Of a stretch of 64,000 nt of DNA, positions 9,168-39,458 are shown piece by piece; positions within the stretch are counted from its first letter, which is position 1; the number at the start of each line of letters is the position of its first letter. The notes below the pieces were generated by a model. The model worked only from the letters and a program-made list of their open reading frames with translations, did no database searches and was not told where the DNA came from. The stretch comes from an uncultured Candidatus Kuenenia sp. (GTDB lineage: Bacteria > Planctomycetota > UBA11346). The stretch is from the NCBI GenBank assembly GCA_964654285.1, contig CAZZJC010000021.1, forward strand, positions 5,249 to 69,248, written 5' to 3'. Made by a program: the position numbers and the translations under genes.

Positions 9168-10577
9168 CTAGGCGTCGTAGTAGAGGTAGAACTCGTAGGG
9201 ATTCGGGCGCAGCTTCATCGGCTCGACCTCGTTCTCGCGCTTGTAGGCGACGTAGGTGTCGATGAAGTCCTCGGTGAAGACGTCGCCGGCGGTGAGCCAC
9301 GACTTGTCGGCGAGCATCTCATCGATGGCCTGGCCGAGGCTGTCGCAGGTGCCGGGGATGGTGGCCAGCTCCTCGGGCGGCAGGTCGTAGATGTTCTTGT
9401 CCATCGGCTTGCCCGGATCGATCTGGTTCTTGATGCCGTCGATCATGGCCATGGTGATGGCAGCGGTGACCAGGTAGGGGCTGCCGCTGGCGTCGGGGCA
9501 GCGGAACTCGAAGCGGCGGGCCTTGTCGCTGCCGACGTGCGGGATGCGCACCGACGCCGAGCGGTTGCTGGCCGAGTAGGCCAGGTTCACCGGAGCCTCG
9601 TAGTGGGGGACCAGGCGGCGGTAGCTGTTCACCGAGGGGTTGGTGAAGGCCTGGATCGAGCGGCCGTGCTTGAGGATGCCGCCGATGGCCCAGATCGCCT
9701 GCTGGCTGAGCTTGGCGTAGGCGTTGCCGGCGAAGAGGTTCTTGCCGTCCTTCCAGATCGAGGTGTGGCAGTGCATGCCGCTGCCGTTGTCGCCGAACAT
9801 CGGCTTCGGCATGAAGGTCGCCGTCTTGCCGTGCTGGTAGCAGGTGTTCTTGACCGCGTACTTGTAGAGGTGGACCAGGTCGCCCGCGGTGATCGCGGTG
9901 CCGAACTTGATGCCGATCTCGCACTGGCCGGGGCTCGCCACCTCGTGGTGGTGGAGATCCACTTCCATGCCCATGGTCTGCATGTTGGTGGTGATCTCGC
10001 TGCGCAGGTCCATCAGGGTGTCCTGCGGGGTCGCCGGGTAGTAGCCCTGCTTGTGGCGGATCTTGTGGCCGAGGTTGACGCCGTCATCGACGCCCATGTT
10101 CCACGGGGCCTCGACCGAATCGAGGTGGTAGAACGAGCCCTGCGGCGCGCTCTGGTAGCGGATCGAATCGAAGATGAAGAATTCGGGCTCGGGGCCGAAG
10201 TAGATGGTGTCGCCGATGCCAGTGGACTTGAGGTAGTCCTGGGCCTTGCGGGCGATGGAACGGGCGTCGCGCGAGTAGCGCTGGCCGGTGCGCGGATCGA
10301 AGATGTCGCCGAAGAAGCAGATCGTGGGCTGCTCGCGGAACGGGTCGATGAAGACCGACGCCGGATCCGGCTTGATCAGCATGTCCGACTTCTCGATGCC
10401 CTGCCAGCCGCGGATCGAGCTGCCGTCGAACGGCAGGCCGTCCTCGAAGATCGACGCCTCGAGCCGGCGCGCGACGATCGTGAAGTGCTGGAGGGTGCCG
10501 AAGATGTCGCCGAACATGATGTCGACGTACTTGGCGCCGTGGTCTTTGGCGAGCTGGAGGGCTTTCGCAACGCTCAT
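9168..10577 (-). CDS. glnA: Glutamine synthetase type I
   Basis: MSVAKALQLAKDHGAKYVDIMFGDIFG... continues to ...KPMFGDNGSGMHCHTSIWKDGKNLFAG...NPSVNSYRRLVPHYEAPVNLAYSASNRSASVRIP, which are canonical GS-I motifs. A GGGAGAA RBS precedes the ATG at 10577. The ORF-track start at 10751 is an upstream extension. Confidence 0.95.
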   Translation of the reverse strand: MSVAKALQLAKDHGAKYVDIMFGDIFGTLQHFTIVARRLEASIFEDGLPFDGSSIRGWQGIEKSDMLIKPDPASVFIDPFREQPTICFFGDIFDPRTGQRYSRDARSIARKAQDYLKSTGIGDTIYFGPEPEFFIFDSIRYQSAPQGSFYHLDSVEAPWNMGVDDGVNLGHKIRHKQGYYPATPQDTLMDLRSEITTNMQTMGMEVDLHHHEVASPGQCEIGIKFGTAITAGDLVHLYKYAVKNTCYQHGKTATFMPKPMFGDNGSGMHCHTSIWKDGKNLFAGNAYAKLSQQAIWAIGGILKHGRSIQAFTNPSVNSYRRLVPHYEAPVNLAYSASNRSASVRIPHVGSDKARRFEFRCPDASGSPYLVTAAITMAMIDGIKNQIDPGKPMDKNIYDLPPEELATIPGTCDSLGQAIDEMLADKSWLTAGDVFTEDFIDTYVAYKRENEVEPMKLRPNPYEFYLYYDA

Positions 10578-13385: not shown

Positions 13386-13734
13386 TCATCCGGTGGGAAC
13401 GGATTCCGGATGACGGACGGGAATCCTCATTTCGGCCCGCCGGGACGGGCACAGGATACGTCGCCTTGGGATCACCGACCGAATGGGGACAGGAATGCAG
13501 AGGGCCAGGGAGATCCCCTGGCTCTTTGCGTTTGCCTGGCGGATACGCCCTGCGGTAGCCGGATACGACGACACCCGGCCGCAAGGCCGGGTGTCGTCGT
13601 CTGTCATCAGTCAACAGAAGCCATGAGGAAAACGTCCAGAGCACCTCAGCTGCAAGGCGGGAGGTGGGATTTGGGCAGCGCCAGCACACCCGCGACCACC
13701 GCCGCAGATGCGGTGCTATGGACGTCTTCCGGGA

Positions 13735-27632: not shown

Positions 27633-28344
27633 ATGCCCAGAACCCTGATCGCCGTCGAGTCCATTCAGCGTTCGATCCACCACTTGCGCGGCCAGCGGGT
27701 CATGACCGACGCCGACCTTGCCCGGTTGTACGGCGTCACGACCAAACGCCTGAACGAAGCCGTGAAACGCAACAGCAAGCGTTTTCCCTCGGATTTCATG
27801 TTCGAACTGACGCTGGCGGAGGAGGATGGTTTGAGGTCGCAATCTGCGACCTCAAAGGCCACGCCACCAGCCAGGGGCGGTCGCCGCTATCGGACCCACG
27901 TCTTCACCGAGCAGGGCGTGGCGATGCTCTCGAGCGTGCTTCCAAAGAACTTCCCCGCTGCGCGGGGTTCCGGCTGGGCCGGAAGGGTCGGCTTCGCCGT
28001 CCCAAGTTCTTGTTTGTCCGGGGGCTGCCCCCCCGTAACGCGCCTCCGGCGCTCCCCCATGAGCAGCCTGATGGCTGCTCAACAGCCCGCGCGCCATTGC
28101 GGTCAATATCGAGATCATGCGCGCCTTCGTGCAGATGCGGAAAACGCTGACGGCGAACGTTGATCTGGCCAAGCGGCTGGCGGTGCTCGAAGCCGAGATG
28201 GGTCGCCACGCCGCCGAGTTCGGGCACCACAAGGCTGAGACGGTGCGGGCAATGAAAGTGGTCTTCGCCACCTTGAAAGCCCTGGCAGCCGAAAAGGCGG
28301 CGCCTGAACCCAAACGCAATCCCGTCGGATTCGTGCTGAAATAG
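27633..28344 (+). pseudogene. ORF6N (KilA-N-like) domain protein gene disrupted by insertion of a ~150-bp MITE-like element
   Basis: MPRTLIAVESIQRSIHHLRGQRVMTDADLARLYGVTTKRLNEAVKRNSKRFPSDFMFELTLAEE...RRYRTHVFTEQGVAMLSSVL is a canonical ORF6N domain. After the insert the protein continues in another frame as NSPRAIAVNIEIMRAFVQMRKTLTANVDLAKRLAVLEAEM... (ORF 28117..28344). Confidence 0.7.
27936..28084. mobile_element. MITE/REP-like multi-hairpin repeat element, copy A
   Basis: About 92% identical to 36893..37044. It contains the nested inverted repeat aagaacttcc...ccaagttctt and hairpins ccccgc-tgc-gcgggg, ttccggc-tgg-gccggaa, cggggg-ctgc-cccccg, gcgcc-tcc-ggcgc and gcagcc-tgat-ggctgc. Confidence 0.75.
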
Positions 28345-30575: not shown

Positions 30576-30677
30576 AAAAATCGCAATTGCACCCCATCTG
30601 CCGCGTTGGTCGTCGGTCATTTGGCGCTGCCCAACTCCCTCCTCCCGCCTTGCAACTGGGGCGCACTTGCGATTTTT
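30576..30677. terminator. Long imperfect inverted repeat (20-bp arms, ~60-nt loop) starting 5 nt after the glgB stop, flanked by A5/T5; terminator-like structured element
   Basis: aaaaatcgcaattgcacccc ... ggggcgcacttgcgattttt. 18 of 20 positions are complementary. Confidence 0.45.
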
Positions 30678-36299: not shown

Positions 36300-39200
36300 T
36301 CACCGCCGCAACCGGACCCGCACCGACACGATCGCCCAGGCCCCGATCGCGAAGGTGAATCCCTCGCCATCGATCGCGGCCGTCGCACCGGCCAGCGGCC
36401 GTTCGAGCAGATCGACCGGAACCGCCGCGGCGATCGCGCCCCACGCGGCGGCATCGAGATGGACGCGGGCGGTGGCAGCGGTGCCGATGAGTTCCTGCAC
36501 CCGGATGATCACGCCATCGCCGTCCTCGGCCGGCTTGAGCTGGGTCACCGCAACGTGGGCTGGAGTACAGGCGGTGACGGTCGGACTGGTGCCGGCCAGG
36601 CGTCCGGCATGGGCGTCGGTGACGGCCCAGCGCAGGGCGTGGTTGGCTTCGACGCCCAGGCGGTGCGGAAGTTCAGGCGCGAGCTTCGTTCCGACCTGGA
36701 AGAGGAAGTTCCAGGCGTGGTCGCCGATCTCGGGCAGCGGATCCGGATCCCAGGTCGCCCGCAGCAGGTGGACCACCAGGGCATCGGTTTCGAGGGCGTA
36801 GTTGGAAATACCGTCGTTGGCCAGCACCGCGCCGGCATCGCGGCCGCGCACCGCGACCCGGCGCAGGGTGGGCAGGGTGCGGCCCTTGGGTTCGCGCTTC
36901 CTAAGAACTTCCCCGCTATGCGGGGTTCCGGCTGCGCCGGAAGGGTCGGCTTCGCCGTCCCAAGTTCTTGTTTGTCCGGGGGCTGCCTGCCCCCGTAGCG
37001 CGCCTCCGGCGCTCCCCCATGAGCAGCCTGACGGCCGCTCCAGCGACCCGAAGGGGATCTCGGCGGTGGCGAGCGGCGACGATCCGTCGTCCGACAGGCC
37101 AAGCGGGAAACGCAGCGACAGGCGCGGAGTGCCCAGTTCCGCTGACCCGCGTTCGAGCCAACGCGTCTCGACCTTCAGCCGCAGGCGGTTTTCGCCGCCG
37201 GCCAGGGTCCAGGTCAGGGTGATGCGGCTGTCGCGGTGGCGGAAGACCGCCTGGATCACCGCGAGATACGGCCCGTGCTGGAGAATCTCGATCTTGTCGC
37301 AGCCGAGCGCCACGATGTCGCGGGTATCATGGATCACCCACGACGAAGCCGGAGCGGGCCGTTCGATGGTGACCACGGGCAGGCCCAGGCAGGCGCCGGC
37401 GGGGACGAACTCGCGACCGCTCGACCGCTCGACCAGGCTCCCGATGCCGCCGCGCACGGTGTCGAAACGCACGGTGAGATGCTCGTTTTCGAAACCCAGA
37501 CGGCCGAAGGGCGAGGCGATCTTCCCTTGGCTTTCCAACTGCCCTTCGTGGTCGCACACCGTGCCGACCGTACCCGGTCCGGCAGCGGCCTTCGCAACCG
37601 CGGGCGCGGCGGGATCGACGACCAGGGCATAGGCGGTCCAGCCGCCGGCCGCCACTCGCGCCGGCACGGCGAGGTCGGTCCACGAGTGCGCCCACCAGCG
37701 GCCGGTGCCCAGCACCTGGGCCCGGACCATGGTGCCCTGGGCATCGCGGACGGCGAACGCATGCGGTGGCGGCACCGGCTGAGCGCGATCGATGTTGCCT
37801 TCCCAGGCGCGCACGGTGATCACCTCCTGGCGGTCCCAGGCGCTGGGATTGGCGACCACGATGGCGAGCGGCCAGCCGTCGACCGCCTGCGCCGCGCTCG
37901 CGTTGCCGACGACGAAACCGGCACCGGCGCCCAGGTTCAGACGCGCCAGGTTGGGGACGGGGTTCCGGCCGGCGGTGCTGGCGCTGGGGGAAGGCTGACC
38001 GGCCCAGGACGTGTCGACCACCTGGGCGAGGGCGCGCAGGGCGGTGGACTGCACGCTCTGCGCTTCGGCCAGCACGCGCTGGGTCATGCCCACAGTGTAG
38101 GCCTTCGAGTCGGCGGTGTTCGATCCCGGCAGGATGTCATGGAAATGCGTGAGCAGCGCGTCGCGCCAGGCGGTGGCCAGGCGCGCGCGCGGCGGCTGCA
38201 CGCCGCAGGCGGCGAAGGCCAGCGCGCCGGCGCCATCGGCGTCGGCCAGCGCGTTCTCACCCTGGCGGTTGGCGCGCTTGACCGCCGACTGCGAGATCAG
38301 GCAGCCGGTCAGCTCGAAGTTGAGTTCGCGATCCCAGGTCGGCAGGCGGTCGCCGAGTTTTTCCAGTTCCGTGAAGAAGGTCCGCGCGGTCGAGAACTCC
38401 CAGCGCGGCCACACCGGCCAGGCATCCATGTCGAGGATGCGTTCGATGTGCCGCCGGGTCGGGCCGCCGCCGTGGTCGCCGACGCCGTAGACCATCATCC
38501 AGGTGCGCGCGCCGGTGGCGCGGGCGAAGGTCGTCACCGCTTTGATTTGATCCGGGCCGCAGAGGTTCATGTAGTCGGCGAGTTCGCGCAGGACGAGCAC
38601 CCGCGAGCCATCAGCGGTCTGCCACCAGAACGCCGGCGGACGGTCGTTCCCGCCGCTGCGTTGCAGGTAATAGTATTTCACCCCGGCGCGGGCATCGATC
38701 GCGGGGATGCTGGCGGCGTGGCCGAAGCAGTCCGGCACCCAGTCCACCGGCACGTCATCGGGCATCAGGCCGAGGTGTTCCTGCATCCAGGCGCGGGTGG
38801 TGAGCAGCTGCCGCGCGACCGCCTCGCCGCCGGCGGTGTTGCGTTCGCCCTCGACCCAGTGGCTGGCGGTGACCTCCCAGCGGCCCTCGCGGATGCGCGC
38901 CGCGACCTCGGCGAACAGGTCCGGATCGTGGTGGCGCAGAACCTCGTACAGCACGCCCTGCGACTGGCTGAAGCGGAAACCCGGATATTCGCGCATCAGG
39001 CGCAGCACGGTGCGGGTGGTGTCGAGCATGGTGCCGACCGTTTCCTGCCACGGCCACTGCCAGTTGATATCGAGGTGCGCGTGGCCGACGCAGTGGACGC
39101 GGTACGACCGCGCCGTCGCCGCCGCCGGCGCGAGCACGGCTTCGGCCTCGGCCAGCGCCGCGTCGACCGGCCGGCCGGCCTCGACCGCAGCGGCGAACCC

Positions 39201-39356
39201 GCGTTCGGCCGCCTCGGCCAGCGCCGGCCAGAGCGCGCCTTCGGCCGGATGCAGGGTCGCCAGATCGCGCACGAACCCGGCCTGCGCCCGCAGCCGTTCG
39301 GCGAAATGCTTCTCACGGACCTGACGGCGGGCGATGGCGGCGGCGGGCGTGGTCAT
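36300..39356 (-). CDS. Glycoside hydrolase family 38 alpha-mannosidase carrying an in-frame 49-aa insert derived from the MITE-like element
   Basis: N-terminal ...HCVGHAHLDINWQWPWQETV... is a GH38 signature. The C-terminal beta-sandwich runs ...AEIPFGSLER[PSGCSWGSAGGALRGQAAPGQTRTWDGEADPSGAAGTPHSGEVLRK]REPKGRTLPTLRRVAV..., where the bracketed segment is encoded by repeat copy B. The ATG at 39354-39356 has a GAGGA RBS. Confidence 0.75.
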   Translation of the reverse strand: MTTPAAAIARRQVREKHFAERLRAQAGFVRDLATLHPAEGALWPALAEAAERGFAAAVEAGRPVDAALAEAEAVLAPAAATARSYRVHCVGHAHLDINWQWPWQETVGTMLDTTRTVLRLMREYPGFRFSQSQGVLYEVLRHHDPDLFAEVAARIREGRWEVTASHWVEGERNTAGGEAVARQLLTTRAWMQEHLGLMPDDVPVDWVPDCFGHAASIPAIDARAGVKYYYLQRSGGNDRPPAFWWQTADGSRVLVLRELADYMNLCGPDQIKAVTTFARATGARTWMMVYGVGDHGGGPTRRHIERILDMDAWPVWPRWEFSTARTFFTELEKLGDRLPTWDRELNFELTGCLISQSAVKRANRQGENALADADGAGALAFAACGVQPPRARLATAWRDALLTHFHDILPGSNTADSKAYTVGMTQRVLAEAQSVQSTALRALAQVVDTSWAGQPSPSASTAGRNPVPNLARLNLGAGAGFVVGNASAAQAVDGWPLAIVVANPSAWDRQEVITVRAWEGNIDRAQPVPPPHAFAVRDAQGTMVRAQVLGTGRWWAHSWTDLAVPARVAAGGWTAYALVVDPAAPAVAKAAAGPGTVGTVCDHEGQLESQGKIASPFGRLGFENEHLTVRFDTVRGGIGSLVERSSGREFVPAGACLGLPVVTIERPAPASSWVIHDTRDIVALGCDKIEILQHGPYLAVIQAVFRHRDSRITLTWTLAGGENRLRLKVETRWLERGSAELGTPRLSLRFPLGLSDDGSSPLATAEIPFGSLERPSGCSWGSAGGALRGQAAPGQTRTWDGEADPSGAAGTPHSGEVLRKREPKGRTLPTLRRVAVRGRDAGAVLANDGISNYALETDALVVHLLRATWDPDPLPEIGDHAWNFLFQVGTKLAPELPHRLGVEANHALRWAVTDAHAGRLAGTSPTVTACTPAHVAVTQLKPAEDGDGVIIRVQELIGTAATARVHLDAAAWGAIAAAVPVDLLERPLAGATAAIDGEGFTFAIGAWAIVSVRVRLRR
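36893..37044. mobile_element. MITE/REP-like multi-hairpin repeat element, copy B (inside GH38 CDS)
   Basis: Same element as 27936..28084. Most differences fall in hairpin loops (tgc to tat, tgg to tgc, ctgc to ctgcct) with the stems preserved. Confidence 0.75.
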
Positions 39357-39458
39357 GGGGCGTCCTCGTCGCTTCAGCATGATTCCAGGCGGATCGGCGC
39401 CAGATGCGACAGGCCGTCCCGCCTTGCCCCGGCCAGGTCGCACCTAGCCTGCCCGGCC

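Follow-up and report, generated by a model that had tools for sequence, protein, structure and literature searches.

In a 64,000-nt stretch of an uncultured Candidatus Kuenenia sp. (contig CAZZJC010000021.1, assembly GCA_964654285.1; the window in the following), we studied a short repeat that lies within the gene of a GH38 alpha-mannosidase. The 137-nt element, together with a 4-bp duplication, adds 47 codons to the gene while the reading frame is kept. We consider it to be a small non-autonomous, hairpin-rich repeat that inserted in a variable loop of the GH38 beta-domain and is tolerated there, i.e., an in-frame insertion of the type known from the Rickettsia palindromic elements (RPE), and assign a probability of about 0.7 to this reading. 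As with the in-frame palindromic elements of Rickettsia, the protein is in all likelihood still produced and has kept at least part of its function. What the data show directly is a derived insertion with exact junctions and matching frame arithmetic, a conserved fold of the repeat and a gene free of decay; that the protein tolerates the 47-residue loop is inferred.

The insert and its host gene

The features of the GH38 site are as follows.

36300..39356, minus strand: GH38 alpha-mannosidase gene, 1018 aa plus TGA stop, intact except for the in-frame insert
36894..37034, minus strand: insert-encoded part of the GH38 protein, 47 codons, residues 775-821, PSGCSWGSAGGALRGQAAPGQTRTWDGEADPSGAAGTPHSGEVLRKR
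36899..37035, plus strand: copy B of the repeat, 137 nt, on the strand opposite to the GH38 gene
36895..36898, unstranded: left CGCT, 4-bp flanking duplication of copy B, from the window sequence
37036..37039, unstranded: right CGCT, 4-bp flanking duplication of copy B, which also completes the 3' arm of the terminal hairpin

The minus-strand open reading frame (ORF) is continuous over 36300-39443 with its start Met at 39356. Its product (P0001, 1018 aa) shows all 4/4 Pfam domains expected for GH38, namely the N-terminal (PF01074, 9.9e-54), middle (PF09261, 3.8e-13), C-terminal (PF07748, 3e-10) and C-terminal beta-sandwich domain (PF17677, 1.2e-8). The insert is placed between ...AEIPFGSLER and EPKGRTLP. 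An earlier note on this DNA, made from the sequence, had located it in the C-terminal beta region with the frame kept, which agrees with the Pfam assignment (Glyco_hydro_38C). The peptide quoted there is the exact minus-strand translation, while its size of 49 aa has to be corrected to 47 aa (141 nt, residues 775-821). Gly, Ala, Ser, Pro and Thr account for 62% of the insert peptide, and TWDGEADPSGAAGTPHSGEVLR is an example of a tryptic peptide derived from it.

The DNA underlying the insert is a copy (B) of a repeat that is found a second time (copy A) in the ORF6N-domain gene of the window. Both copies share 94.9% identity over 136 aligned bases, differing by 7 substitutions and one 2-nt indel, such that the claim of the same repeat at both sites holds. 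Repeat search and pairwise alignment agree that the similarity begins and ends abruptly. Chance similarity is excluded, as a 54-nt stretch of the element gave 0 matches in 100 shuffles of the window and a covariance model of the element scores copies A and B each at E ~1e-45. Weaker matches of this model within the window are either self-matches of the palindromic terminal hairpin or GC-rich hairpins; no more diverged copies were found among them. The right CGCT of copy B is part of the terminal hairpin, which reads GAGCAGCC-TGAC-GGC-CGCT-C, where CGCT are the duplicated bases.

The preservation of the frame follows from simple properties of the element. Copy B (137 nt) and the 4-bp duplication sum up to 137 + 4 = 141 = 3 x 47 nt. 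Because this is an exact multiple of three, the frame behind an inserted un-deleted copy is always preserved. Furthermore, the element has a GC content of ~70% and between 3/6 (copy B) and 4/6 (copy at locus L007) stop-free reading frames, among them the one in which GH38 is translated. Given this length and the open frames, an in-frame, stop-free outcome is thus an expected property of the element and not a special coincidence.

Empty sites in relatives

The closest GH38 homologue (P0002, 972 aa) is 92% identical and does not contain the insert, which is also absent from 71 further aligned GH38 homologues. The contig encoding P0002 (L001; ENA sample ERZ27280257) is syntenic with the window, i.e., both show the gene order TyrRS-GH38-TPP enzyme-GlgB-ORF6N-MreB. 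In L001 the GH38 gene is uninterrupted and the ORF6N gene is intact, such that both sites are empty. The earlier note had taken the stretch for a secondary insertion and named orthologues carrying the same stretch as the observation that would speak for native sequence; all 72 aligned homologues are without it. A native lineage-specific loop is ruled out, given orthologues without the stretch and a repeat as the underlying DNA. Judged by these comparisons, the GH38 insert is derived and fairly young.

A further copy is located at 10332-10463 of locus L008, which stems from the same ENA sample (ERZ27280257) as L001. It is truncated at its 5' side with an intact right end and interrupts a gene whose match to the nucleotidyltransferase domain (MNT-like) is weak and below threshold, with BrnT and PIN toxin genes next to it. 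Since this copy comes from the L001 sample, the community holding the empty GH38 allele carries the element elsewhere.

At the junction itself, we compared window positions 36890-36898 and 37036-37045 with L001 12310-12330. Here, the window GH38 gene appears to be one codon (His) short: orthologues read LEHHEP or LERHEP, while LE-R-EP is inferred for the window. Because of this missing codon, the net difference between P0001 and P0002 is 46 aa and not 47. The missing codon reflects either a separate 3-nt deletion or an imperfectly conservative insertion.

An assembly artefact, in which the repeat was wrongly joined into the GH38 gene, is very improbable. It would fit that the filled allele is on a single contig and that some copies from metagenome-assembled genomes (MAGs) are near the starts of the fetched stretches, possibly contig ends, as is often the case with repeats. 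Against this, the junctions are base-exact with a 4-bp duplication and preserved codon phase, both flanks are colinear with the orthologue, and copy B has private substitutions and is therefore no pasted duplicate of the ORF6N copy.

The sequence of events that we propose is thus the following. The insertion happened after the window lineage split from its closest sampled relative. The un-deleted 137-nt element plus the 4-bp duplication added exactly 47 codons with the downstream frame preserved. The enzyme thereby gained an excursion of 47 residues, rich in Gly/Ala/Ser/Pro and bounded by two conserved strands, and is otherwise as before.

Effect on the enzyme, selection and age

Next, we considered what the insert does to the enzyme. 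An AlphaFold2 prediction for P0001, built on an alignment of 73 sequences, is confident, with a mean pLDDT of 87.9 and a pTM of 0.89. Its only long low-confidence segment is 778-820; the insert (pLDDT 26-35) is modelled as coil between the strands 770-775 and 827-829. The model matches every solved GH38 structure, with Ams1, Bl_Man38A and SpGH38 at TM 0.65-0.69. When the C-terminal profile is aligned to PDB sequences, Ams1 and Bl_Man38C show ~7 extra residues at the position of the insert. Because these loops are longer there, the insertion point is a natural indel site.

The remainder of the protein is well conserved. All columns that are invariant across the 73 homologues (91/91) are kept in P0001, including HxD, PDxFGH, GDHGGGP and FHDILPGS. 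H94, D96, D209, D294, H406 and D407 of P0001 are all located in invariant columns; their roles are assigned by analogy with H13/D15/D125/D232/H351/D352 of SpGH38 (PMC2815779). As the beta-domains of GH38 enzymes contribute to the substrate cleft, an effect of the loop on specificity or substrate access is possible. The SpGH38 loop 757-773, which lines the +1/+2 subsites, could not be related to the insert, as SpGH38 is unreachable by sequence in the insertion region. By a rough offset estimate, this loop would be nearer to the DPDPLPEIG motif than the insertion loop is.

We also compared the GH38 genes of the window and L001 for signs of relaxed selection. Here, dS is 0.298 and the overall dN/dS is 0.149; the 198 codons that follow the insert have a dN/dS of 0.160. 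Amino-acid changes are balanced between the two branches, both when polarised with the outgroup P0003 (17 for the window vs 18 for L001) and when assigned by family majority (35 vs 35). Relative to the consensus of the close copies, copy B differs at 5/137 positions (3.6%), while copy A differs at 2 positions plus a 2-nt deletion. With 5 substitutions in 137 nt, copy B is not brand new. If its differences post-date the insertion, the event would fall in roughly the last quarter of the branch. Given such post-insertion drift, a dead gene would show an excess of replacements and some stops, neither of which is seen.

The main competitor is that the insertion has already inactivated the enzyme, be it by misfolding, a blocked cleft or translation stalled on the mRNA fold (~-85 kcal/mol), such that the gene is a very young pseudogene. 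We regard this as unlikely, although several observations would be in line with it: the sense-strand RNA has a strong fold, and the same element knocked out the C-terminal half of ORF6N and disrupted the MNT-like nucleotidyltransferase gene in L008. The location of the insert and the single filled allele, both taken up below, point in the same direction. On the other hand, the 3 kb of the gene contain 0 stops or frameshifts, dN/dS stays at 0.15-0.16 before and after the insert, and the amino-acid change is balanced. Neutral drift of 3.6% since the insertion would predict, by estimate, roughly 70 extra non-synonymous changes and several stops, none of which is observed. Furthermore, the loop has extra residues in other active GH38 enzymes.

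The earlier note had left it at either a tolerated loop or a gene being inactivated. Our results lean towards the former, given the intact ORF, the retained catalytic-motif residues, the dN/dS of 0.15 on both sides, the balanced change and the variable length of the loop. A very recent inactivation is still in play.

Several points weigh against a tolerated insertion. First, the insertion point directly follows the nearly invariant motif YEIPFGxxxR774, and GH38 beta-domains help to form the substrate cleft (PMC2815779). Second, the low pLDDT of the insert is partly due to the shallow alignment in this region. Third, the differences of copy B may predate its insertion, which would render the selection tests weak. 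Fourth, the filled allele is seen on 1 contig only, the empty allele on 5. Finally, the sequence of the orthologue at the GH38 site has diverged (LEHHEP vs LE-R-EP), so the CGCT duplication is read from the window sequence only, and an exact duplication is found only for the window copies, i.e., the left flanks of the copies at loci L009, L004 and L005 do not match.

The repeat in the ORF6N gene

Copy A provides a second insertion with a known empty site. The respective features are as follows.

27941..28075, plus strand: copy A of the repeat, 135 nt, same orientation as the surrounding ORF6N gene, whose frame it shifts
27937..27940, unstranded: left TGCT, 4-bp duplication of copy A; the L001 empty site has a single TGCT
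28076..28079, unstranded: right TGCT, 4-bp duplication of copy A, matching the left copy
27633..28344, plus strand: ORF6N-domain gene, broken after codon 103/190 by copy A

Copy A carries a 2-nt deletion relative to copy B and the copies at L007 and L009. When 27941-28079 (139 nt) is removed in silico, a 190-aa ORF is restored that is colinear with the intact orthologue, which bears out the claim that the ORF6N gene is broken by the repeat. L001 reads ...AGCGTGCT-CAACAGC... at this site, and the window reads ...AGCGTGCT-(135 nt)-TGCT-CAACAGC.... On this comparison, copy A is a clean insertion with a 4-bp duplication.

Both copies differ in a possible terminator. On the minus strand of copy A (27953-27967), the first hairpin is followed by AAGTTCTTTG, which a scan flagged as terminator-like. 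In copy B, the minus strand (i.e., the GH38 sense strand) reads AAGTTCTTAG instead at 36911-36925 and is not flagged; no terminator or promoter signal was found in copy B inside the GH38 gene. The difference may be due to chance or to the loss of a weak terminator inside the GH38 gene.

Family members and distribution

In total, we collected 8 DNA copies, i.e., 2 in the window and 6 at foreign loci, at unrelated sites. A pattern scan of a genome collection yielded 4 MAG copies, with the labels Planctomycetota (2), Caulobacterales (1) and 'Kuenenia' (1). The last of these (L007, CAMCMZ010000053.1) is labelled Candidatus Kuenenia stuttgartiensis, yet its GC content is 67% over 8 kb. Mis-binning is therefore probable, with a high-GC member of the Planctomycetota as the true source of this contig. 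Scans of metagenome and viral collections with two different anchor patterns returned nothing. L004 and L005 form a more distant subfamily that is ~10 nt longer, while L007 and L009 are of the same length as copy B.

At the protein level, a census with the six frame translations found 7 proteins in 5.8 billion clusters, and an index-free search of 1.84 billion representative proteins found 4. Some copies are known only as translated proteins, namely P0121 (with two tandem copies at its start), P0123, P0127 and P0248. As judged from these searches, the repeat family is real but rare and uncatalogued, and its named MAG hosts are mostly Planctomycetota. By its MreB, the host of the window itself falls among uncultured Planctomycetota.

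Internal in-frame insertion is the exception among the copies. It is observed for 1/8 DNA copies (GH38), and a C-terminal fusion occurs once (ABC ATPase P0123). The remaining copies are intergenic, disruptive or N-terminal miscalls. The terminal hairpin contains ATGAGCAGCC and the frames are open, such that gene callers start proteins inside the element (MSSRQAAHGGAPEARYGG...) or read through it. The element-derived N-termini of P0121, P0122, P0124 and P0127 as well as the C-terminus of P0123 are annotation artefacts of this type. Thus, there is a lesson for annotation: in high-GC MAGs, the element yields spurious N-terminal extensions and C-terminal fusions.

Fold of the element

Copy B is composed of a 5' four-way junction, a GTTTGT linker and three further hairpins, i.e., seven helices in total. 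Within the four-way junction, the closing stem AAGAACTT/AAGTTCTT surrounds three GC-rich hairpins with 3-nt loops. The two strands fold with energies of -80.7 and -84.9 kcal/mol, which corresponds to z-scores of -4.5 and -4.95 versus shuffled sequences. ARAGORN calls neither tRNA nor tmRNA, and a tRNA-like nature of the cloverleaf was rejected on this ground. With regard to Rfam 15, no match reaches the gathering threshold within the window; the best sub-threshold matches (cut-off E 10) score 15.7 and 11.5 bits with E >= 1.

The fold is conserved within the family. Across the 8 DNA copies, standard pairs are found in 94.8% of the pair cells, compared to 40-51% in controls with slid pairing partners. 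Pairs in which both positions changed (covarying pairs) are observed 13 times versus 0-1 in the slid controls, and 0/500 shuffles reach the observed figures, where the 8-copy alignment had been fitted to the covariance model. The L009 copy, which was found via a part of the element other than the DNA pattern, shows two double compensatory changes in the closing stem. Concerning the strand of a putative RNA, 11 G-U wobbles versus 7 A-C mismatches provide no signal, and most such cells stem from misaligned or truncated copies. Given this strand-symmetric pairing, both DNA and an RNA copied from either strand are conceivable as the active form of the structure.

Such a conserved and very stable fold raises the question of whether the insert might be removed before the mature protein is formed, i.e., by RNA excision, translational bypass or protein splicing, which would leave the enzyme unchanged. 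Mobile bypass elements exist in yeast mitochondria. Beside this precedent, the fold is the only support for removal, which we consider the least credible explanation of all. No intron or ribozyme of Rfam matches even at E values of up to 10, 137 nt is below the size of known self-splicing introns, and the strand-symmetric fold lacks a G-U vs A-C bias. Likewise, the Gly/Ala-rich 47-mer is without intein motifs, and the same element is not frame-neutral in its ORF6N copy.

Ends, target and mobility

We find no terminal inverted repeats: the left end matches the reverse complement of the right end at 7/18 positions (by eye), and the repeat search reports no terminal inverted pair. The right end is constant, i.e., ...GAGCAGCC-TGxx-GGC-NGCT followed by CA or CC, such that the terminal hairpin needs the duplicated or target bases to complete its 3' arm. 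Of the 7 copies with a left end, 4 have NGCT as their left flank. Only the two window copies show the same N on either side (TGCT/TGCT, CGCT/CGCT); the flanks of L007 are CGCT (left) and TGCT (right). This agreement of N in the window copies argues for a true duplication.

In three loci (L004 ~450, L005 ~528, L007 ~5676), the right end meets the TGA stop of a gene that is encoded on the other strand. The sequence TGAGCA at these stops is the reverse complement of TGCTCA, i.e., of the NGCT-CA junction. Because its right ends meet TGA stops in these loci, the element tends to sit directly 3' of genes.

No transposase or recombinase was found among the 20 largest window ORFs or in the Pfam tables of the fetched loci, and no TnpA/RAYT (Y1 HUH) in the Pfam tables of the loci or among the scanned window ORFs. 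Scans for a parent insertion sequence (IS) sharing the left/core or right-end parts, which covered exact patterns, returned short copies only. The label of a miniature inverted-repeat transposable element (MITE), as used in the earlier note, is therefore not upheld in the strict sense: the element is without terminal inverted repeats, and the exact-pattern scans revealed no parent IS.

The element would have moved in trans, presumably by means of an enzyme with an affinity for the folded ends. A staggered cut is suggested by the 4-bp duplication. The missing inverted terminal repeats and the target-completed terminal hairpin (NGCT-CA) suggest a mechanism that depends on hairpins or single strands.

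A more far-reaching proposal is that the element constitutes a new kind of structured mobile element rather than a decayed transposon, in which the four-way junction and the target-completed hairpin serve as substrate or guide for a trans-acting enzyme and the 3n length, duplication included, is selected because it allows copies to persist within genes. If true, a structured element of 3n length would be a source of new protein loops in Planctomycetota. We find this rather doubtful. A tolerated insertion of a small repeat, as preferred here, does not claim the 3n length as a selected trait, the copies L004/L005 being ~10 nt longer.

Other repeats in the window

A second, unrelated repeat of ~95 nt is present at 13629-13719 (plus strand) and 30586-30676 (minus strand) with 80% identity. 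The two copies are located just 3' of gap and glgB, in the same orientation relative to the gene. Its fold is a single long, imperfect hairpin (-50.3 kcal/mol, z -4.6) with UUUU directly behind it, and Rfam gives no match above threshold. From its sequence, it looks like a repeated terminator-type element. Finally, a tandem array spans 397-2063 with a period of 285 nt, 5.8 copies and 90% matches; its coding units comprise ~95 aa.

Significance and comparison with known systems

The GH38 site offers a clean, datable case with filled and empty alleles in which a selfish repeat adds a 47-residue loop to a large enzyme and the gene is not destroyed. Most previous descriptions of such loop additions come from Rickettsia and a small number of other bacteria. 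The filled/empty pair P0001/P0002 makes loop tolerance directly testable. Given its good covariation support, the element is also a tractable case for how repeats without terminal inverted repeats move.

In-frame small palindromic repeats in genes are documented, with RPE as the extreme case and ERIC, QMITE1 and Anabaena MITEs as occasional ones (review PMC10969869). RPE (Ogata et al. 2000, summarised in PMC10969869) are ~100-150 bp long, non-coding and strongly self-complementary, with no associated transposase. They are found in frame inside unrelated protein genes, where they add ~45-50 residues thought to be compatible with the fold (PMC10969869). The window element resembles them in size, self-complementarity, absence of a transposase and its in-frame GH38 insertion, a likeness that concerns these features. 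It differs in its host (Planctomycetota vs Rickettsiales) and in its very low copy number. Furthermore, most of its copies are intergenic or disruptive, with a single internal in-frame DNA copy and one C-terminal protein fusion. The window copies also have a clear 4-bp duplication, and the encoded peptide is Gly/Ala/Pro-rich and predicted to be disordered.

With bacterial MITEs (Correia/NEMIS, ERIC, QMITE1, Anabaena), the element shares its small size, non-autonomous nature, scattered loci and occasional in-frame fusions; as for their short target-site duplications, matching 4-bp flanks are seen at the two window copies. In contrast to these, no terminal inverted repeats or parent IS were found, and its interior is a conserved multi-helix fold instead of one long hairpin.

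Elements moved by HUH enzymes (IS200/IS605-derived PATEs, REP/REPIN with RAYT) are similar in that they lack terminal inverted repeats and have folded ends, a preferred short target (here NGCT, then CA) and a structure readable on either strand. However, they insert without target duplication, while the window copies are flanked by matching tetranucleotides. In addition, the cleavage-site bases of our element are inside the terminal stem, and no TnpA/RAYT gene is seen near its copies.

On the side of the protein, the loops of Ams1 and Bl_Man38C are comparable in that extra residues are found at exactly the same position, i.e., after (Y)E-x-x-(F/Y)G-x-x-x-R. These loops are only ~7 residues longer, conserved within subfamilies and not repeat-derived. 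Taken together, the family is best described as a low-copy, undescribed member of the known kind of small structured non-autonomous repeats, i.e., as a known phenomenon in a new host.

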